Positions 629 through 56,609 of a stretch of 64,000 nucleotides of DNA are shown in pieces. Position 1 is the first letter of the stretch. Every line of letters begins with the position of its first letter. The notes under the pieces are model-generated. The model did no database searches. It saw only the letters and a list, made by a program, of their open reading frames with translations, and was not told where the DNA came from. The position numbers were made by a program, and so were the translations under genes. The DNA lies in assembly GCF_054482595.1 (NCBI RefSeq), contig NZ_CM137008.1; one strand, given 5' to 3'.

Positions 629-1342
629 CTAATGAAAAAAACGCGTATGCCTTTGCCAGACAAGCGTTATAGCTATCGCGGCAAGTATCCCAAAGAAGCC
701 GATAAAATAGTAATAGAGTGTTAATGCACCTGTAAAAGCGCAACGAACCGGACTCCACAACTCTTCACTATGGCATTTCCCCGCCAATTCAAGGAGCTTA
801 TTTCGTCCATGCGAGATAATGCCTGACCATAACACAATCATTAAGCAACTTATTACCCAAATGGGCCGTTCACTCATTAATGCGGCATTCACGATGATTA
901 CCAGGGCCAACCCTGTCAACGTCATCATAATCATAAAACGGTGAGAACCAGGATCAATATTAAATAATAAACCGGCCAGCATACTGATTAAAAACATCGC
1001 GCCCGCAGTGCTGAACACGACGATAATGGCAGGTACAGGAGCTAAACTAGCAACGACAATCGCCACCAAAGAGAGTAAAAACAGATATATTACGCCTGCG
1101 ATGGCGGCATTTATCTTGTTGATATCCTTACTTAAGCCATACATACAAAGTAATAATAACCCTATGGCGACATACATTGGTGGTGAATCATATTTGGTTG
1201 CCGTAATTTCGAGATACTTAGCACCCCAGGCCAGCCCTGCGGTTGCCACCAAACCTAAAGCGGTAATGAGCCATATACCGTTTAATATCCTGGTCTCGTG
1301 CTGAAAATCTAATTTATTGCTGTTTTGCAAGTATGATTCCAT
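629..1342 (-). CDS. ybhM: Inner membrane protein YbhM (237 aa)
   Basis: 237-aa ORF, polytopic membrane protein; size and position match K-12 ybhM. Confidence 0.65.
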   Translation of the reverse strand: MESYLQNSNKLDFQHETRILNGIWLITALGLVATAGLAWGAKYLEITATKYDSPPMYVAIGLLLLCMYGLSKDINKINAAIAGVIYLFLLSLVAIVVASLAPVPAIIVVFSTAGAMFLISMLAGLLFNIDPGSHRFMIMMTLTGLALVIIVNAALMSERPIWVISCLMIVLWSGIISHGRNKLLELAGKCHSEELWSPVRCAFTGALTLYYYFIGFFGILAAIAITLVWQRHTRFFH

Positions 1343-3569: not shown

Positions 3570-4082
3570 TTATTTCTTCAAATGTGGATGGAAATTACAC
3601 GGACGCGTACGGGCATCCAGCTGCGGCGCGATGATATTTTCCCATGCGGTACGGCACGCTTTGGTCGAACCCGGCATGGCGAAAATCAGCGTTTTGTTAG
3701 CGACGCCCGCTACCGCACGAGATTGCAACGTGGAAGTGCCAATCTCTTCAAACGACAACATACGGAACACTTCACCAAAACCTTCAACTTCACGGTCGAA
3801 CAACGGCAGCAATGCTTCGGGAGCCTGATCACCTTCCGTCAGGCCAGTCCCCCCCGTAATCAACACCACTTGTACATCGTCGCTGGCGATCCACGCAGAT
3901 ACCTGAGCGCGAATAGCGTAGCGGTTTTCTTTCACAATGGCTTTATCGACAACGTGATGGCCCGCTTCTTGCGCCGAATCGCGCAAATAGTGACCGGAGG
4001 TATCGTCTTCTTCACCGCGACGATTAGAAACCGTAAGAATAGCAATACGGGTCGGGATAAATTCAGTGCTTACCTGACTCAT
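3570..4082 (-). CDS. moaB: Molybdenum cofactor biosynthesis protein MoaB (170 aa)
   Basis: 170-aa ORF, MogA/MoaB-like translation, between moaA and moaC. Confidence 0.9.
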
Positions 4083-4103: not shown

Positions 4104-5093
4104 TTAGCCGCCAATGTACGATAAGTTTTGCGTAATACCGGTGTTGTTTTGATGCAGGAAATGGGTCTGTTTCTTCTCCCGCAGCGCCGCTGAAATACGC
4201 GCTTCCAGCACCTGTTGCTGGGTATCGTCTTCCAGCAGATCGCGCAGGTTAACGCCGCCTTCACCAAACAGGCAGAGATGGAGTTTACCAATGGAGGAAA
4301 CGCGCAGACGGTTGCAAGTGGCGCAGAAGTCTTTTTCATACGGCATGATAAGGCCAATCTCTCCGGCGTAATCCGGATGACAAAAGACTTGCGCGGGACC
4401 GTCGCTGCGTTGACGTAATTGGTGGATCCAGCCGCGACGCAGTAGCTCGTCACGCAGAACCTGACCAGAGATGTGATGCTTACGGAAGAGCTCGCTGCCC
4501 TCGCCCGTTTCCATCAGTTCGATGAAACGCAGCTGGATAGGGCGATGCTGGATCCAGTTCAGAAAGGTGTCGAGCTGGTGATGATTAACATCACGCATCA
4601 GCACGGTATTGACTTTGACCTTCTCAAAACCGGCCTCAAATGCAGCATCAATCCCTGCCATGACCTGGTTGAATTTATCCTGCCCGGTAATAGCGTGAAA
4701 CTGGCGGGCGTCCAGACTATCAACGCTGACGTTGATGCCAGTAAGTCCAGCATCGCGCCAGTTCGCCACATCGCGTTCCAGACGGTAACCATTGGTGGTG
4801 ACCGCTATCTGGCGAATAGCGTCGTTTTCTCGCACAGCGGCGATGATATCGGTAAAGTCGCGGCGTAAAGACGGCTCACCGCCTGTCAGGCGCACTTTTT
4901 CGGTGCCCAGACTGGCGAAGGCGCGCGTAACCCGGCGAATTTCATCGACGGTCAGAAAGCCTTTATTGGTGACGCCGCTCGGTTTGTAGCCATCCGGCAG
5001 GCAGTAGGTGCAACGAAAGTTACACACATCGGTAATCGACAGGCGCAAGTAGTAAAACTTACGCGCAAATGCATCAGTCAGTTGTGAAGCCAT
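4104..5093 (-). CDS. moaA: GTP 3',8-cyclase MoaA, radical SAM (329 aa)
   Basis: ORF trimmed to MASQLTDAF...; CNFRCTYC radical-SAM cysteine motif near N-terminus; 329 aa. Confidence 0.92.
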
Positions 5094-5240
5094 GTACACC
5101 TTTCCAGATACGGGAGGCGAAGTCATTTCTTCCTTCGCCCTGGTGGCAATCTTTACGAGCATTGTCACGGCCAAAGCACCATATCAGTTGACCCAGGTGC
5201 AGAGGCTAGAGTGTTTAGTGGTTAAGCCGATACTAGCGTG
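5094..5240 (-). ncRNA. moaA 5' leader, expected location of the Moco riboswitch
   Basis: Long untranslated leader upstream of moaA; the riboswitch is placed by established knowledge of the E. coli moaA leader, its conserved fold was not verified here. Confidence 0.35.
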
Positions 5241-19267: not shown

Positions 19268-19588
19268 ATGAGCAAGTTCCCTAGTCATGAAATGGATAGG
19301 TTCAATATCAGGCTTCCTGCAGGAATGCGGGATGCTATAGCTGAACGAGCCAAACGTAACGGCAGATCAATGAACTCAGAGATTGTTCAGATACTGGAAG
19401 ATGCCTTGAATGCAGAAAATACACTCGGGGAAATAGCAGATAAAATCAACAGCGTCTCGGTTCCGCTAAATGTTGATGCGCTAGTTCAACTTCAAGCCCA
19501 GGTTATCGCCATGCAAAAAGAAATACAGGAAAAGTTCAGAGAGCAGAACGAAAAGTTGAGAGAACTGCTAAACAAAAAAACCACCTGA
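19268..19588 (+). CDS. mnt: Mnt-like repressor (106 aa)
   Basis: N-terminal RHH motif FNIRLPAGMRDAIAERAKRNGRSMNSEIVQILEDAL and C-terminal coiled coil ending KKTT, as in P22 Mnt (recalled). Confidence 0.75.
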   Translation: MSKFPSHEMDRFNIRLPAGMRDAIAERAKRNGRSMNSEIVQILEDALNAENTLGEIADKINSVSVPLNVDALVQLQAQVIAMQKEIQEKFREQNEKLRELLNKKTT

Positions 19589-34790: not shown

Positions 34791-35226
34791 AACCTCGTCT
34801 AGTTGTTCGTCATAGATTCAGTGGCTGGCGGTGACGATTCCGCTTTTCGGGAGCTACCCTAGCCACTGTTTTATTCTATCCGATGTCTTTCCATCAGTCC
34901 GCCACCACAAAGAATCTTTTTTGCCATAAGGCAGGAGGTTCATCTTTCAGTGGCTGCCAGTGTTATTTCCCCACCTACTGGCTTGGGTTGTTTCGCTGTA
35001 CTGCCGTAACTGGTTGCCCAGAATAAATTCCGGTTTCATTATCAAGCCCACCCGTAGATAGGCTTTGTAATGAACCGGCTCTTATCTCAACGCAGCCCCT
35101 TACCGCGCGCCAGATGCTCAATATCAAGCATCAGCAATGAGATGTTTAATCTGGATTCACTCCAGAAGTGATCACCACCCTGTCTACAGAGCCAGATGTG
35201 AAGGATGATGAGTAAAATTATCGCTA

Positions 35227-44083: not shown

Positions 44084-44362
44084 TCAGGCCTCGAAGAATT
44101 CGCCGTTCTTCGGGGCTTTTTCTTTTGTCAGCATTCTGGCTACTTTCTTAGCCAGTTCCGCCAACTCCTCGTCTTCAACACCCCATTCAAGAACAGCCAG
44201 AAGCATTCCCATTTTTGGGATGAAGCTGTCTTTCCATCGCGAAATTTGCGATTCATTAATCCCTAATGCATCAGCAACCTTTCGCTGACCACGTACAGCA
44301 ATTCGATTCAGGATGTTGCTTGTAATTGCATTCGCTTTCTTGCGAGTACTTGTAAGTTGCAT
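44084..44362 (-). CDS. cII: CII-type transcriptional activator (92 aa; start chosen downstream of nutR)
   Basis: ...RKVADALGINESQISRWKDSFIPKMGMLLAVLEWGVEDEELAELAKKVARMLT parallels lambda CII HTH and C-terminal region. Confidence 0.75.
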   Translation of the reverse strand: MQLTSTRKKANAITSNILNRIAVRGQRKVADALGINESQISRWKDSFIPKMGMLLAVLEWGVEDEELAELAKKVARMLTKEKAPKNGEFFEA

Positions 44363-44420
44363 ATGTAAGTATTTCCTTAACAAATAAGAAGTTATGCGCA
44401 TCAACTTATGCGCGTTGTAT

Positions 44421-44464
44421 TCCCGCATTTCGGCGGGAATGAGGACCATGACTGTTAAAGAGCG
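44421..44464 (-). promoter_or_regulatory. nutR (boxA + boxB) between cro and cII
   Basis: minus strand boxA CGCTCTTTAACA (44464..44453) then boxB hairpin TCCCGC-CGAAAT-GCGGGA (44438..44421). Confidence 0.7.
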
Positions 44465-44471
44465 GTGTTAC

Positions 44472-44696
44472 TTATGCTGCCTGATTCGGTTTTGGAAACA
44501 GGTGTGGCAAATCGGGGCGAATTTCGTAAGCCTTGATCTGCCCTCCAGTGGCGTTAACGATGGCGGTAACTTTCTCTGGAGAGACCAACCCGCCTTTCAG
44601 CCATTTGTGTACTGCTGGCTGCGTTACACCACACTTGTCGGCAAGACGCTTTTGGCTACCGACAATTTTCAAGGCTCGTTGAATTACTAAATTCAT
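44472..44696 (-). CDS. cro: Cro-type repressor (74 aa)
   Basis: ORF 44472..44717 trimmed to ATG at 44696 (AAGAGG 7 nt upstream); HTH QKRLADKCGVTQPAVHKWLKG. Confidence 0.75.
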   Translation of the reverse strand: MNLVIQRALKIVGSQKRLADKCGVTQPAVHKWLKGGLVSPEKVTAIVNATGGQIKAYEIRPDLPHLFPKPNQAA

Positions 44697-44717
44697 GAGC
44701 ATACCTCTTGTGGTCAT

Positions 44718-44807
44718 TACTTATAACCAAAGATAACTCAAGTTATAAAAATTAGCAATAACCTTTGTTATTTTACTTTGGATAACCGTAGTTATAGATT
44801 TGTGGGT
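44718..44807. promoter_or_regulatory. OR operators with divergent pR/pRM promoters
   Basis: Repeated imperfect palindromes with ATAAC...GTTAT half-sites (ataactcaagttat, aataacctttgttatt, ataaccgtagttat). Confidence 0.6.
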
Positions 44808-45515
44808 ATGAAAACATTCGCAGAAAGACTAAATGCAGCCATGAGCTCAGCAGGGGTATCACAATCACAGCTTGCTGACATGGTTGGAATATCTCAGCCA
44901 GCCATACAGAAGATGTCGTCCGGTAAAACAAACGGATCTCGCAAGATGGTTGAATTAGCCAATGCTTTAAAAGTGCGTCCTGAATGGCTTAGTTCTGGTA
45001 TTGGTGAAATGAGGGATGGTGCACATGAAGAACCATCCAATGTCCGTGAGTCATCTTTAAAAGCTGTGGTATGGGAAGACATTAAAAGAAACGATGACGA
45101 GTTTGTTGCGTTGCCTCTTCTTAACGTTTCGCTTTCAGCTGGAAGCGGTAGCTGCGAGCTAGAGGAATCATCGGAGTTCTCTTTGGTTTTCAGAAAGCAC
45201 TATCTGAAAAAGATGGGAGTATCTGAAAGATCAGCCAAGCTAGTTAGGGTTGTAGGGCAAAGCATGGAACCAACGCTTCACGATGGCGATGTTGTTGGTG
45301 TTAACACGCAAGATACCACAATCAGAGATGGTAAAACCTACGCTATTTGCCAGTCTGATTTGTTACGAGTAAAAACATTAATCGCCACCCCTACATCGGT
45401 GATAATCAGATCAATAAATCGCGAAGAGTACCCGGATGAAGTAATGGATAGAGATGAATTTCATAAAACCGTAAGGATTATTGGCAGAGTATTCTGGTCG
45501 TCTCATAGTTGGTAA
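44808..45515 (+). CDS. cI: CI-type prophage repressor, HTH + S24 LexA-like autopeptidase domain (235 aa)
   Basis: ORF 44778..45515 trimmed to MKTFAERLNAAMSSAGVSQSQLADMVGISQPAIQKM; C-terminal GQSMEPTL with Ser and later Lys of S24 peptidases. Confidence 0.85.
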   Translation: MKTFAERLNAAMSSAGVSQSQLADMVGISQPAIQKMSSGKTNGSRKMVELANALKVRPEWLSSGIGEMRDGAHEEPSNVRESSLKAVVWEDIKRNDDEFVALPLLNVSLSAGSGSCELEESSEFSLVFRKHYLKKMGVSERSAKLVRVVGQSMEPTLHDGDVVGVNTQDTTIRDGKTYAICQSDLLRVKTLIATPTSVIIRSINREEYPDEVMDRDEFHKTVRIIGRVFWSSHSW

Positions 45516-45757
45516 CCGATAATCAGAAGAAGACTTACGGAAGTGCGGAGGGATAATGGAATTTCTGATAGTTTTTGTTGTTGTTTTGGTCATCATTCTT
45601 TTTGTTTTGCTAAGCATTAGCAAAAAGCTATCTCAAATGATTGAACATAGCTCTAATCGCGCAAAATAGACTGGCCCCCTGAATCTCCAGACAACCAATA
45701 TCACTTATTTAAGTGATAGTCTTAATACTAGTTTTTAGACTAGTCATTGGAGAGCAG

Positions 45758-46123
45758 ATGATTGATGTCTTAGGACCGGAGAAACGCAGACGGCGTACTA
45801 CACAGGAAAAGATCGCTATTGTTCAGCAGAGTTTTGAACCGGGAATGACAGTCTCCCTTGTTGCCCGGCAACACGGTGTGGCAGCCAGCCAGTTATTTCT
45901 CTGGCGCAAGCAATACCAGGAGGGAAGTCTTACTGCTGTGGCCGCAGGAGAACAGGTCGTTCCTGCCTCTGAACTTGCTGCCGCCATGAAGCAGATTAAA
46001 GAACTCCAGCGCCTGCTCGGCAAAAAAACGATGGAAAATGAACTCCTTAAAGAAGCCGTTGAATACGGGCGTGCAAAAAAGTGGATAGCGCACGCGCCCT
46101 TATTGCCCGGGGATGGGGAGTAA
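45758..46123 (+). CDS. insC: IS2 transposase OrfA (InsC, 121 aa)
   Basis: [58 protein letters not shown]3-family HTH OrfA. Confidence 0.9.
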
Positions 46124-46986
46124 GCTTAGTCAGCCGTTGTCTCCGGGTGTCGCGTGCGCAGTTGCACGTCATTCTCAGACGAACCGATGACTGGAAAGAT
46201 GGTCGCCGCAGCCGTCACTCAGATGATACGGATGTGCTTCTCCGTATACACCATGTTATCGGAGAGCTGCCCACATATGGTTATCGTCGGGTATGGGCGC
46301 TGCTTCGCAGACAGGCCGAACTTGATGGTATGCCTGCGATCAATGCCAAACGTATTTACCGGATCATGCGCCAGAATGCGCTGTTGCTTGAGCGAAAACC
46401 CGCTGTACCGCCATCGAAACGGGCACATACCGGCAGAGTGGCTGTGAAAGAAAGTAATCAGCGATGGTGCTCTGACGGGTTCGAGTTCCGCTGTGATAAC
46501 GGAGAAAAACTGCGAGTCACGTTCGCGCTGGACTGCTGTGACCGTGAGGCACTGCACTGGGCGGTCACTACGGGCGGCTTCAACAGTGAAACAGTACAGG
46601 ACGTCATGCTGGGAGCGGTGGAACGCCGTTTCGGCAACGAGCTTCCGGCGTCTCCAGTAGAGTGGCTGACGGATAATGGTTCATGCTACCGGGCTAATGA
46701 AACACGGCAGTTTGCCCGGATGTTGGGGCTTGAACCGAAGAACACGGCGGTGCGGAGTCCGGAGAGTAACGGCATAGCAGAGAGCTTCGTGAAAACGATA
46801 AAGCGTGACTACATCAGTGTCATGCCCAAACCAGACGGGTTAACGGCAGCAAAGAACCTTGCAGAGGCATTCGAGCATTATAACGAATGGCATCCGCATA
46901 GTGCACTGGGTTATCGCTCGCCACGGGAATATCTACGGCAGCAAGCCAGTAATGGGTTAAGTGATAACAGGTGTCTGGAAATATAG
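46081..46986 (+). CDS. insD: IS2 transposase OrfB (InsD, 301 aa; expressed as InsCD by frameshift)
   Basis: DDE integrase-type translation overlapping orfA 3' end in a different frame. Confidence 0.9.
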
Positions 46987-47191
46987 GGGCAAATCCACAA
47001 AAGAAGAAGAGCATCTAATTGATATAAAAGAGATTCTATCTGATATAAAAATCACATTAGATGAAATAAAATACACAACAGATCTAATTGAACAGTATAA
47101 AATACCAACCCCAAACGAGAGAAAAGCAATAGATCAATATCGTATTGACTTAGAAATCGACGAAATGCTAAGCAAAAGAAAAGACTAAAAA

Positions 47192-47220
47192 CACCCGGCC
47201 TCAGCGCCGGGTTTTCTTTT
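47192..47220 (+). terminator. Rho-independent terminator after the IS2-split gene
   Basis: cccggcc tcag cgccggg followed by ttttctttt. Confidence 0.7.
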
Positions 47221-47349
47221 CCTGCCGTTCACCACCCAATCACCCATCATCATCATAGACAAGCATCAAGCCAAAGGTAACACCTTCACCCCGCACGCAA
47301 GCCCTCAAACACCAATCAATCAGCAACATTTACAAAAATAAAATACATT

Positions 47350-47426
47350 TGTTATCCATCACTTATAACTTATTTACCACAAAATATAAGTTAGGTTATT
47401 GACCACACCTATAACCTAAGTTATCT
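47350..47426. promoter_or_regulatory. OL operators / pL region
   Basis: Same half-site family as OR (ataagttaggttat, ataacctaagttat) upstream of nutL and N. Confidence 0.55.
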
Positions 47427-47472
47427 TTAAGCCATCAGCAGGACGCTGGTAGCCAAACGGAACAGATTGGCA

Positions 47473-47514
47473 GGCTCTTTAACATTGATGGGATTGTCCC
47501 GCCGAAATGCGGGA
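47473..47514 (+). promoter_or_regulatory. nutL (boxA + boxB)
   Basis: boxA GGCTCTTTAACA (47473..47484) and boxB TCCCGC-CGAAAT-GCGGGA (47497..47514), identical to nutR boxB. Confidence 0.7.
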
Positions 47515-47708
47515 ACCAAAGAGTAGTTGGCTTTGGGATTGGATGAATGAGCAGGCTGATGCTCGACCAATGTATAAACAGCGCTCATGGCAAGCAGTAA
47601 CCAATCTGCGCCTCAAGACAGCGTCACTGGTAGTGCGGGCGCTCTAACCAGTAAGCCGGAATTCAGCACCGGCCATCCAATCACCAAAGTCAATCATCGG
47701 AGGTCAAC

Positions 47709-48008
47709 ATGACAGTAGTCATTACATATCTGGCTGACGATAACGCCAGAAATCGCCGCAGAGCACGCAGACAGACTCAACGTGAACAGGCAATGCAAGA
47801 GCAGCGACTGGCGCGAAAAATTGCGCTAAAGCTCTCTGGTTGCGTCAGAGCAGATAAAGCAGCATCACTCGGAAGCCTTCGCTGCAAGAAGGCAGAAGAA
47901 GTCGAGCGTAAACAGAACCGTATTTACTACCGCAAGCCACGCAGTGAAATGGGTGTGACTTGTGTTGGTCGCCAGAAAATGAAATTAGGCAGCAAACCAC
48001 TTATTTGA
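47709..48008 (+). CDS. N: Antiterminator N (99 aa)
   Basis: Arg-rich N-terminus (NARNRRRARRQTQREQ) and C-terminus RIYYRKPRSEMGVTCVGRQKMKLGSKPLI paralleling lambda N. Confidence 0.8.
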   Translation: MTVVITYLADDNARNRRRARRQTQREQAMQEQRLARKIALKLSGCVRADKAASLGSLRCKKAEEVERKQNRIYYRKPRSEMGVTCVGRQKMKLGSKPLI

Positions 48009-48439: not shown

Positions 48440-48625
48440 TTTCAGGCCGAATATTCGGCCTTTATTTTTAGCATAAACAACAGAGGTGAATATGAACGCA
48501 GTTGAATTTACAAAATGGATGGCAGAGCAAGATATCACAGGAGCCGACGAAAAGGCTGTGTACTACATGGCTATGCTATGGATTCACAAAGCAAAAGAGG
48601 CTGCAAATGCTCTTGGAGGTGAGTG

Positions 48626-55342: not shown

Positions 55343-55561
55343 ATGTACTTGACACTTCAGGAGTGGAACGCACGCCAGCGACGCCCAAGAAGCCTTGAAA
55401 CAGTTCGTCGATGGGTACGCGAGTGCAGGATATTCCCTCCTCCGGTTAAGGATGGAAGAGAGTATCTGTTCCACGAATCAGCGGTAAAGGTTGACTTAAA
55501 TCGACCAGTAACAGGTAGCCTTTTGAAGAGGATCAGAAATGGGAAGAAGGCGAAGTCATGA
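55343..55561 (+). CDS. xis: Excisionase Xis, lambda-type (72 aa)
   Basis: MYLTLQEWNARQRRPRSLETVRRWVRECRIFPPPVKDGREYLFHESAVKVDLNRP matches lambda Xis as recalled. Confidence 0.93.
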   Translation: MYLTLQEWNARQRRPRSLETVRRWVRECRIFPPPVKDGREYLFHESAVKVDLNRPVTGSLLKRIRNGKKAKS

Positions 55562-56609
55562 GCGCCGGGATTTACCCCCTAACCTTTATATAAGAAACAA
55601 TGGATATTACTGCTACAGGGACCCAAGGACGGGTAAAGAGTTTGGATTAGGCAGAGACAGGCGAATCGCAATCACTGAAGCCATACAGGCCAACATTGAG
55701 TTATTTTCAGGACACAAACACAAGCCTCTGACAGCGAGAATCAACAGTGATAATTCCGTTACGTTACATTCATGGCTTGATCGCTACGAAAAAATCCTGG
55801 CCAGCAGAGGAATCAAGCAGAAGACACTCATAAATTACATGAGCAAAATTAAAGCAATACGGGGGGGGCTGCCTGATGCTCCACTTGAAGACATCACCAC
55901 AAAAGAAATTGCGGCAATGCTCAATGGATACATAGACGAGGGCAAGGCGGCGTCAGCCAAGTTAATCAGATCAACACTGAGCGATGCATTCCGAGAGGCA
56001 ATAGCTGAAGGCCATATAACAACAAACCCTGTCGCTGCCACTCGCGCAGCAAAATCAGAGGTAAGGAGATCAAGACTTACGGCTGACGAATACCTGAAAA
56101 TTTATCAAGCAGCAGAATCATCACCATGTTGGCTCAGACTTGCAATGGAACTGGCTGTTGTTACCGGGCAACGAGTTGGTGATTTATGCGAAATGAAGTG
56201 GTCTGATATCGTAGATGGATATCTTTATGTCGAGCAAAGCAAAACAGGCGTAAAAATTGCCATCCCAACAACATTGCATGTTGATGCTCTCGGGATATCA
56301 ATGAAGGAAACACTCGATAAATGCAAAGAGATTCTTGGCGGAGAAACCATAATTGCATCTACTCGTCGTGAACCGCTTTCATCCGGCACAGTATCAAGGT
56401 ATTTTATGCGCGCACGAAAAGCATCAGGTCTTTCCTTCGAAGGGGATCCGCCTACCTTTCACGAGTTGCGCAGTTTGTCTGCAAGACTCTATGAGAAGCA
56501 GATAAGCGATAAGTTTGCTCAACATCTTCTCGGGCATAAGTCGGACACCATGGCATCACAGTATCGTGATGACAGAGGCAGGGAGTGGGACAAAATTGAA
56601 ATCAAATAA
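55539..56609 (+). CDS. int: Integrase Int, lambda-type tyrosine recombinase (356 aa)
   Basis: MGRRRSHERRDLPPNLYIRNNGYYCYRDPRTGKEFGLGRDRRIAITEAIQ... matches lambda Int as recalled; overlaps xis end. Confidence 0.95.
   Translation: MGRRRSHERRDLPPNLYIRNNGYYCYRDPRTGKEFGLGRDRRIAITEAIQANIELFSGHKHKPLTARINSDNSVTLHSWLDRYEKILASRGIKQKTLINYMSKIKAIRGGLPDAPLEDITTKEIAAMLNGYIDEGKAASAKLIRSTLSDAFREAIAEGHITTNPVAATRAAKSEVRRSRLTADEYLKIYQAAESSPCWLRLAMELAVVTGQRVGDLCEMKWSDIVDGYLYVEQSKTGVKIAIPTTLHVDALGISMKETLDKCKEILGGETIIASTRREPLSSGTVSRYFMRARKASGLSFEGDPPTFHELRSLSARLYEKQISDKFAQHLLGHKSDTMASQYRDDRGREWDKIEIK

Follow-up and report, generated by a model that had tools for sequence, protein, structure and literature searches.

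Two identical boxB hairpins of a P22-like prophage, probable nutL and nutR elements of the HK620 specificity type

Two identical hairpins, one on each strand, lie in the early region of the prophage carried by the window, i.e. the whole stretch of 64,000 nucleotides (64 kb) that was analysed, and the question is whether they are the boxB elements of nut sites and, if so, which kind of N protein would read them. An earlier note on this DNA had described them as the boxB of nutL, before N, and of nutR, between cro and cII, and both statements hold: TCCCGCCGAAATGCGGGA occurs exactly at 47497-47514 (plus strand) and 44421-44438 (minus strand), and the gene map with its family assignments places the first between pL/OL and N and the second between cro and cII. 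For matches to an 18-mer with up to three mismatches the chance expectation is about 0.04 per window. The only further boxB-like match, at 19315-19332 with three mismatches, falls inside an Arc-like CDS without boxA and was discarded as fortuitous.

The motif GCTCTTTAACA occurs at two places only in the 64 kb, and these are the boxA of nutL and nutR. On the plus strand, nutL consists of boxA GGCTCTTTAACA (47473..47484), whose positions 2-9, GCUCUUUA, are those of rrn BoxA, of a 12-nt spacer TTGATGGGATTG (47485..47496) almost invariant among relatives, and of the boxB hairpin UCCCGC-CGAAAU-GCGGGA (47497..47514). On the minus strand, nutR consists of boxA CGCTCTTTAACA (44453..44464), the first base of which is C or T among relatives, of a 14-nt spacer GTCATGGTCCTCAT (44439..44452) and of the same boxB (44421..44438), which reaches 8 bp with its flanks. 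Both sites display a boxA (GCUCUU[UA]A), a spacer of 12-14 nt and a hairpin of 6 bp and 6 nt; one is found early in each of the two divergent early operons, past a promoter (pL or pR) that the repressor controls. These data support the view that they form the nut pair, nutL and nutR, of an N system of the lambdoid kind. Rfam, in which no nut/boxB family exists, matched only a Moco riboswitch and an int-alpA RNA over the whole window.

The surroundings are those of a lambdoid early region. OL contains two operators ATAAC-N4-GTTAT (47386-47399 and 47411-47424, plus strand, within 47386..47434) together with a pL-like promoter, TTGACC-17-TATCTT (47399-47427, plus), whose start is set at about 47434 by alignment to the annotated pL start of phage 21; the same operator motif is found three times between cro and cI (44733, 44758 and 44782, within 44733..44795), in OR with the divergent pR/pRM. 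Upstream of nutR stands cro (44472..44717, minus strand), with which the pR operon begins; in E. coli E7476, RefSeq calls a shorter version of cro, of 74 aa. The first gene past nutR is cII (44084..44362, minus), for which the true start is the ATG preceded by AAGGAA. Directly after nutR, a hairpin GCGCAUAAGUUGAUGCGC (44396..44413, minus) belongs to the region annotated as tR1 by the depositors of HK620; as the terminator consensus scan gives no call there, we did not retain it as an intrinsic tR1, this name being the depositors' annotation only. On the other side, the leader of N contains a long-range helix (47526..47694, plus), in which 47526-47545 pairs with 47674-47694 around a variable insert, and which is the counterpart of the lambda N-leader hairpin. 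The N gene (47709..48008, plus; 99 aa), with a Shine-Dalgarno GGAGG at 47699-47703, begins 194 nt after the boxB of nutL, and an intrinsic-terminator-like site downstream of N and of the next ORF (48444..48461, plus) is a candidate tL1.

The 18-mer folds into a 6-bp stem closed by the 6-nt loop CGAAAU (-9.7 kcal/mol, z = -2.9), and this hairpin is retained when nutL and nutR are each folded in a context of 61 nt, so that the failure to fold which the earlier note had considered did not occur. Covariation points in the same direction: 92% of the cells pair, against 39-63% in slid controls, and three of the seven pairs are changed on both sides; a stem mismatch, C-A or C-C, appears in three nutR variants. 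As proposed, the loop differs from those of lambda (GAAGA/GAAAA), P22 (GACAA) and phage 21 (CUAACC); on the other hand it is the same as the one annotated in HK620, so that identity with a known type, which goes partly against the proposal, is found for HK620 and for none of the three others. Indeed both nut sites agree in every base with the “putative nutL/nutR” of this coliphage, which were annotated in 2001 (GenBank AF335538): the sites are not new, and the specificity type, although distinct from the three classical ones, is not newly discovered. The element is moreover widespread, since the nutR module is present in 500 of 5,426 complete E. coli genomes (~9%, about one in eleven) and in 27 phage records; in that respect the finding is an ordinary one, such regulatory elements being standard in a prophage type that is common. 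Our literature search on HK620, boxB and N specificity, run without the HK620 genome and phage 21 NMR papers, brought no characterisation of the HK620 class, nor any binding or antitermination assay for it in the literature covered; the mEp paper, which deals with a different, non-lambdoid group, was rejected as a source.

The N protein appears composed of two parts of different kinship. Its residues 1-33 (47709-47807, plus strand) form an HK620-type module that contains the arginine-rich motif (ARM), identical to HK620 N at 32 of 33 positions, while its residues 34-99, on the same strand, form a phage-21-type body binding NusA and RNA polymerase (RNAP), 97% identical to phage 21 N. The ARM, A-R-N-R-R-R-A-R-R, aligns with those of lambda, P22 and phage 21, and this alignment, suggested earlier as a check, reveals that it differs from all three types. 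Residues 62-99 match residues 74-110 of chain N in 6GOV (chain numbering; in native lambda N, of 107 aa, these are residues 74-107) with E = 2.6e-4 PDB-wide and, pairwise, with 57% identity and E = 5e-11; the RNAP-binding segment is in this way homologous to the C-terminus of lambda N, a segment resolved in the antitermination complex 6GOV. The PDB search with N matched this C-terminus alone, the short N-peptide entries not being among the matches. With the Pfam model PF25694 (N_peptide) N scores 19.6 bits, under the gathering cut-off of 27.9; this model appears not to cover the present combination of ARM and body, the homology of which is nevertheless shown piece by piece by sequence comparison. 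RefSeq labels the identical protein “hypothetical”; there is thus an annotation gap, N being a hypothetical protein in RefSeq and missed by Pfam N_peptide.

Each of the 134 classifiable distinct nutL contexts that contain this boxB precedes an HK620-class ARM (DDNARNRRRARRQ), and the ARMs in those contexts are joined to at least four different C-terminal modules. When loci were selected by their N protein, the exact boxB was recovered in 74 nutL out of 74, with polymorphic flanks; the search with a 4-sequence N alignment returned only proteins 96-100% identical; of no use for diversity, it did allow the invariance of boxB to be tested without bias, and the diversity of the class was obtained with the diverged L193 N as query. 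Among 11 reference phages the type of boxB follows the N-terminal ARM of N and not the remaining protein: the ARMs of lambda, P22, phage 21 and HK620 go each with their own boxB, and a single C-terminal module (..GVTCVGRQKMKLGSKPLI) is found with all four ARM types. The same nut pair also surrounds several immunity cassettes, with spacings of ~1.15, 1.70, 1.74 and 2.3-3.4 kb, and occurs with two unrelated cII types. Certainly the co-inheritance of boxB and ARM could come partly from their physical linkage, ~200-600 bp apart; on the other hand nutR, 1.2-3.4 kb off across swapped immunity regions, still matches, which counters this explanation.

The present system has both marks of the HK620 class, the hairpin UCCCGC-CGAAAU-GCGGGA (more broadly an N-GNRA-U hexaloop) and the ARM core [NT]A[RK]NRRR[AE][RK]R, and its loop and its ARM both differ from those of lambda, P22 and phage 21. 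This supports the HK620 specificity type as a separate class, as far as sequences can tell. The claim that the loop implies an N of distinct specificity gains from natural domain swaps, in which a phage-21-type body is associated with a different ARM; in all the phages examined, the type of boxB follows that of the ARM. On this comparative ground, boxB and the ARM codons behave as a small two-piece cassette that recombines freely with N bodies, cII genes and immunity regions. Such swaps offer clean evidence that a peptide of ~30 residues and a hairpin of 18 nt co-evolve as a portable specificity cassette.

Altogether it is very probable that the two hairpins are the boxB of nutL and nutR in an antitermination system of the lambda N type, with HK620 specificity, in a P22-like prophage. 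If this system follows the lambda paradigm, loss of the repressor would let RNA polymerase start at pL and pR and transcribe the nut sites; the rrn-consensus boxA RNA would recruit NusB/NusE, and the N-terminal ARM (residues ~10-30, DDNARNRRRARRQTQREQ) would bind the boxB hairpin. The C-terminal part of N, phage-21/lambda-like, would then with NusA and NusG render the polymerase resistant to terminators, so that the tR1 region before cII, the tL1-like site after N and later terminators might be read through. What the comparisons show is the sequence and placement of the sites, their hairpin, the homologies and the co-inheritance of boxB and ARM; binding and Nus dependence we infer from the lambda model, as we infer the GNRA fold and the orthogonality taken up below. 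With a boxA of the rrn type, a dependence on NusB/E resembling that of lambda imm21 would be predicted.

Could the sites be genuine but their specificity not distinct, the loop difference being neutral and the N proteins of this prophage, lambda and phage 21 recognising each other's boxB through a GNRA-like turn? With GAAA as its core the loop has a GNRA sequence, comparable to the fold taken by lambda GAAAA (PMC12550061), lambda N binds GNRA-like loops, the geometry of 6 bp and 6 nt is that of phage 21, and the ARM retains the family pattern A-x-x-R-R-R-x-R-R. However, were ARMs and boxB freely interchangeable, strict co-segregation would not be expected, and the two types co-segregate without exception in the 11 reference phages and in more than 130 contexts, even where the remainder of N is swapped. 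Besides, boxB is invariant while its flanks vary, and the residue aligned by eye with the loop-stacking Trp18 of lambda is an Ala here. We hold such cross-recognition for unlikely. That the hairpins would not be N targets at all, but the stems of ordinary terminators or attenuators, or inverted repeats lying by chance near a boxA-like sequence, is scarcely credible: their stems are GC-rich, and past nutR come another hairpin and a tract with U, but neither boxB is followed by a U-run, the terminator scan calls neither of them, and they are the hairpins of the annotated HK620 nut sites, in two exact copies placed in mirror behind pL and pR, 12-14 nt past the sole two boxA of the 64 kb.

An IS2 of 1331 bp (45667..46997, plus strand), with a CAAAA target duplication, is inserted in the 98-aa gene downstream of cI, between cI and pL; it falls inside the reported interval and outside the nut system. 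The prophage might then be cryptic or disabled, and its nut sites idle relics: the IS2 junction is private to the present strain, and the gene of the cI operon that carries it is destroyed. Against this, a tIMM-like terminator ending the cI operon (47193..47212, plus), at the same relative place as tIMM in HK620, is intact and separates IS2 from pL, while relatives free of the interruption share 99.5-100% identity over OL, pL and nutL as well as over the leader helix, the Shine-Dalgarno and a full-length N ORF. The prophage itself, P22-like and integrated at the att-lambda locus, is full-length: the tailspike, coat and terminase genes, Q, the lysis genes, O/P, erf and int make up a full complement. 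The insertion leaves the nut/N system intact, and we judge a relic very improbable, although less so than hairpins foreign to N.

Returning to nutL and nutR as probable sites of the HK620 type, their boxA were said to differ at one position, and this is position 1. In more than 130 copies of nutL boxA is kept, and its sole variation is precisely the first base (G, T, A or C); a change at position 1 is tolerated according to a structural study of NusB/NusE (PMC3177189). The difference between nutL and nutR, at a naturally variable and tolerated position, is unlikely to be functionally meaningful. For the boxA type as a whole, rrn-type BoxA binds NusB:NusE at 5-8 nM, compared with 80-90 nM for lambda nut (PMC2800207). 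A pairing of nutL boxA (GCUCUUU) with AAAGAG after boxB, present in the MFE folds, was not significant (z = -0.7), and its partner AAAGAG is replaced in some relatives, so that this reading was dropped.

The structure of the loop deserves a more speculative comment. Diverged members of the class have the loops CGAAAU, AGAGAU and CGCAAU, i.e. the pattern N-GNRA-U, which suggests a true GNRA tetraloop within a hexaloop of the phage 21 style; in PDB 1NYB the CUAACC hexaloop of phage 21 adopts a GNRA-like turn with a flanking C-C pair (PMC12550061). By analogy, boxB is most likely a stem of 6-7 bp topped by a C-U pair of non-Watson-Crick type and, within it, a genuine GNRA tetraloop (GAAA), an arrangement which would most likely combine the hexaloop architecture of phage 21 with a lambda-like GNRA core; the literature search found no description of this reading for the HK620 class. 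The predicted fold would bridge the lambda and phage 21 solutions. There is about as much to be said for as against the further idea that the HK620 class is a structurally distinct fourth N-boxB solution, in which a Trp-less ARM would read a canonical GNRA tetraloop (GAAA, GAGA or GCAA) set within a non-Watson-Crick N-U pair of a hexaloop, and which would be functionally orthogonal to the solutions of lambda, P22 and phage 21. Were it so, the class would provide an uncharacterised peptide-RNA pair already validated by nature, which could serve as a fourth orthogonal tag for tethering, and viral contigs would show at least ten classes of this kind, the present one included. Lambda-N/boxB and P22-N/boxB being in wide use for tethering, further orthogonal pairs, from the HK620 class or from others, could be useful.

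Among the known systems HK620 is the closest. Its boxA, spacer and boxB, like those of HK630, HK140, mEpX2, CUS-3, IME10 and vB_EcoP-611R6, are base for base the same, its ARM is one residue apart (A in HK620, T23 here), and the two agree in gene order and in being P22-like; past residue 64, by contrast, N has here a phage-21-type body and in HK620 an H-19B/HK97-like tail, the leader from nutL to N is 87 nt longer here, the immunity region (cI/cro) is different and IS2 is added. Phage 21 (PDB 1NYB; the lambda imm21 system) has the same pL leader and boxA (GGCUCUUUAACA) and a boxB of the same geometry, in which a stem of 6 bp carries a hexaloop with its four central bases in a turn between two pyrimidines, but its loop is C-UAAC-C instead of C-GAAA-U, five of the six stem pairs differ, and its ARM is KGTAKSRYKARRAELIAER where ours is DDNARNRRRARRQTQREQ. 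Lambda (PDB 1QFQ; complex 6GOV) shares the layout of boxA, spacer and boxB, the positions behind pL and pR with N as first pL gene, the C-terminal RNAP-binding segment (57% identical), a GNRA-type loop core and, in the long-range helix of the N leader, the same base sequence GGCUUUGG/CCAAAG; it differs by a GAAAA/GAAGA pentaloop, closed by U-A and with one extruded base, in place of the hexaloop, by a weaker boxA (CGCUCUUA[AC]), by its Trp18, without equivalent in the present ARM, and by the middle of N, which is unrelated. P22, with its gp24-boxB (PDB 1A4T), resembles the present prophage in its virion and in the backbone of its genome, and shares with it a consensus boxA and, at the N-terminus, the leader MTV(V)ITY; it uses a GACAA pentaloop and the ARM GNAKTRRHERRRKLAIERD, and its two boxB stems differ from each other, whereas those of the present prophage are identical.

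Both nut sites of this prophage carry the same boxB, TCCCGCCGAAATGCGGGA, matched exactly over 18 nt at 47497-47514 (+) for nutL and at 44421-44438 (-) for nutR, as the earlier note had claimed; shuffles of the window give a chance expectation of 0.04 matches with up to 3 mismatches. A third boxB-like match at 19315 (3 mismatches) was set down to chance, because it falls within the coding sequence of an Arc-like ribbon-helix-helix protein and lacks a boxA. The 11-mer GCTCTTTAACA occurs only twice in the 64 kb, upstream of the two boxBs at a distance of 12 nt (nutL) or 14 nt (nutR); it follows a G (47473) in nutL and a C (44464) in nutR, in agreement with the one-base boxA difference previously reported. 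The boxB 18-mer folds into a 6-bp stem with a CGAAAU loop (-9.7 kcal/mol, z = -2.9), and the hairpin is retained in a 61-nt context, where the flanks lengthen the nutR stem to 8 bp. The AUG within the boxB loop (CGAAAUG) starts a 46-codon ORF (window 47507-47647; 3759-3899 in the related locus L001), for which phage vB_EcoP-611R6 has the annotation “repetitive proline-rich cell wall protein 2”; this gene is almost certainly a false prediction that runs across the nutL leader.

The base that differs is BoxA position 1, where rrn and lambda imm21 have U, lambda has C and Aquifex G; according to the NusB/NusE structural paper (PMC3177189) the difference is tolerated, U1C giving only small NMR shifts. 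Among relatives, nutL has any of the four bases at this position, nutR either C or T. It is thus very unlikely that the one-base difference has functional weight, position 1 being tolerant and variable, and positions 2-9 (GCUCUUUA) being those of rrn BoxA. As the latter binds NusB:NusE about 10 times tighter than lambda's (5-8 nM vs 80-90 nM, PMC2800207), the nut boxA is predicted from this match to bind NusB/E strongly, like that of imm21. At nutL, the boxA core GCUCUUU (47474-47480) can pair with AAAGAG 3' of boxB (47520-47526), which would hide boxA; this pairing is part of the MFE structures of both the window and HK620, is not significant (z = -0.7), and its AAAGAG partner is swapped for other sequence in some relatives.

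The loop is indeed unlike those of lambda and P22. In a panel of arginine-rich motifs (ARM) and boxBs taken from phage sequences, the lambda-type ARM (lambda, HK542, Sf6) goes with GCCCUGAAGAAGGGC or ..GAAAA.., the P22-type (P22, SH2026Stx1) with GCGCUGACAAAGCGC or CCGCCGACAACGCGG, the phage 21-type (21, PA28, mEpX1) with a CUAACC hexaloop (CUAACA at PA28 nutR), and the HK620-type (window, HK620) with the CGAAAU hexaloop. A single C-terminal N module (..GVTCVGRQKMKLGSKPLI) is joined, in this panel, to all four ARM types.

The exact boxB was collected in 265 distinct contexts. In all 134 nutL copies an HK620-class ARM comes next, on at least four N bodies (phage 21-type, HK620/H-19B-type, P22-like and others). 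Another 123 belong to nutR and stand upstream of two unrelated cII types, five lie at contig ends, and the three left unclassified turned out to be an R21H point variant of the ARM, a diverged ARM of the same class, and one unrelated GC-rich match. When loci are chosen by the N protein alone, boxB is invariant in 74 of 74 nutL sites while flanking positions are polymorphic, and one case shows a mosaic breakpoint 3 nt past the nutL hairpin. The co-inheritance of nutL and ARM could reflect their physical linkage; linkage, however, leaves unexplained that nutR matches too, although the immunity region in between is swapped. The nut-pair spacings (about 1.15, 1.70, 1.74 and 2.3-3.4 kb) show that the same nut pair surrounds different immunity cassettes. 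The segment that holds nutR, the hairpin and the ribosome-binding site (window 44363-44420) is conserved as far as the cII start codon and, in relatives, continues into either of two unrelated activators, of lambda-cII type (84 contexts) or of P22-c1 type (39), a mosaic junction at the ATG. Three lines of natural variation thereby support, at the sequence level, that the boxB type implies the N specificity. The distinct specificity proposed in the earlier note is supported in that boxB follows the ARM, but the type is not new, the sites being those of HK620.

At least eight further ARM/boxB pairings occur in L214-L258 (related IMG/VR loci), e.g. KARELRKRLRAEAHREQ with GGGGA-UGAUUCG-UCCCC hairpins, NSVSRRYLKRGELIAKRR with UCUCCCGCCCUUGUGGGAGA, NSKQRYNAKRAAEHR with CUACCUGAUGCAGGUAG, and a phage 21-like ARM, AK[MA]RYRARR, with CUUACA/CUGACA loops. 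N specificities are thus far more diverse than the three textbook types, and a distinct specificity is the rule among lambdoid phages, no surprise; the epsilon34 genome paper infers N specificity in like manner for that phage (PMC2629481).

N is a mosaic protein. Its first 33 residues are those of HK620 N but for one substitution, residues 34-99 are 97% identical to phage 21 N, and the segment 62-99 has its homologue in the terminal part of lambda N that binds RNA polymerase, as seen in the 6GOV complex (57% identity). Pfam N_peptide scores 19.6 bits on the protein, below the gathering score of 27.9; this score excepted, the sequence features of a lambdoid N/nut system are all present, and boxB and ARM place the system in the HK620 class, outside those of lambda, P22 and phage 21. 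The identical protein of E. coli E7476 (4279-4578 in locus L212; window 47709-48008) is labelled “hypothetical protein” by RefSeq/PGAP. Together with the low Pfam score, this makes an annotation gap for a protein that hundreds of E. coli genomes carry.

The surrounding interval is a lambdoid prophage immunity region, reversed relative to the lambda map. Family assignments give a P-like helicase, O, cII (PF05269, E = 4e-42) and cro on the minus strand, a cI-type S24 repressor and the 99-aa N candidate on the plus strand. Operator-like ATAAC-N4-GTTAT motifs lie at 47386 and 47411 (OL) and at 44733, 44758 and 44782 (OR), a pL-like promoter (TTGACC-17-TATCTT) at 47399-47427, a tIMM-like terminator ending the cI operon at 47193-47212, and a terminator-like site past N and the next ORF at 48444-48461. 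Aligned to the annotated pL start of phage 21, the transcript starts at about 47434, some 40 nt 5' of boxA. A strong terminator-like hairpin (44086-44118, +), antisense to the cII 3' end, occupies the position of the lambda oop RNA terminator. An IS2 (45667-46997, 1331 bp, CAAAA target duplication) interrupts a 98-aa gene of unknown function directly downstream of cI; lying upstream of tIMM, it leaves OL, pL, nutL and N untouched. E. coli E7476 has the same arrangement without IS2 and with the gene intact (99.5-100% identity), and a search of 5,426 complete E. coli RefSeq genomes did not find the IS2 junction.

The pL leader folds much better than shuffles (z = -5.1), forming a 20-bp long-range helix, 47526-47545 with 47674-47694, which encloses a variable insert and spans from just 3' of nutL to just 5' of the N Shine-Dalgarno. 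Lambda and HK620 have the same helix, with a common base (GGCUUUGG/CCAAAG) and compensating upper parts, and in relatives the boxB-to-ATG distance runs from 107 to 618 nt. The helix looks like the counterpart of the RNase III-processed N-leader of lambda.

The host element looks like a complete, full-length P22-like (Lederbergvirus-type) prophage, at about 15300-56700, with a tailspike head-binding domain, P22 coat protein, terminase, Q and an Erf-like recombinase; its lambda-type integrase (55539-56609) adjoins ybhC/ybhJ, the classical att-lambda locus, and no tRNA gene was found in the whole window. Rfam matches an int-alpA RNA (34807-34869, -, 42 bits) in the stretch that separates the small terminase gene from the lysis genes and, in the flanking chromosome, a Moco riboswitch (5081-5225, -, 104 bits), presumably the moa leader. 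The 72-nt nutR module was found in 500 of the 5,426 complete E. coli genomes; 27 phage records also have it, among them HK620, HK630, HK140, mEpX2, CUS-3, IME10 and several Stx phages; the exact boxB is in more than 120 viral-contig stretches, a lower bound. MT713136.1 (“Aeromonas phage AP1”, 254 kb) carries this E. coli-type module at 253449-253520 with 100% identity, about 1 kb from the record end, perhaps as the result of a chimeric assembly or of contamination.

Diverged members of the HK620 class, retrieved as relatives of a diverged N, keep the ARM core [NT]A[RK]NRRR[AE][RK]R, and the loops of the class, CGAAAU, AGAGAU and CGCAAU, are all N-GNRA-U. Their stems compensate: in a small sample of seven distinct variants 92% of cells pair, against 39-63% in slid controls, and three of seven pairs change on both sides. 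Three nutR variants are mismatched (C-A or C-C) at the third pair counted from the loop. In the diverged loci (L193, about 1060-1097 (-); L215, L219, L220, L230) the mismatch is in the nutR hairpin and not in nutL, and the nutR hairpin has an extra outer C-G pair, loop and 5' arm being conserved. In PDB 1NYB (PMC12550061) the hexaloop of phage 21, CUAACC, has its central UAAC folded into a GNRA-like turn, with a C-C pair on its flanks. By analogy, C-GAAA-U would most simply be read as a true GNRA tetraloop with a flanking C-U pair, that is the geometry of phage 21 with a lambda-like core. The ARM residue aligned to lambda's loop-stacking Trp18 is Ala, and the N-GNRA-U hexaloop with its Trp-less ARM may form an orthogonal peptide-RNA pair. 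The literature covered contained no experiments on this class and no structure of it.

As a sequence feature the nut sites are already known, since they were annotated in 2001 and are widespread: the “nutL/nutR; putative N-utilization” features of HK620 (AF335538) are identical in every base to those of the window. Phage 21 shares its pL leader and boxA DNA with the window, base for base, but diverges strongly in two patches, the boxB hairpin and the ARM codons.
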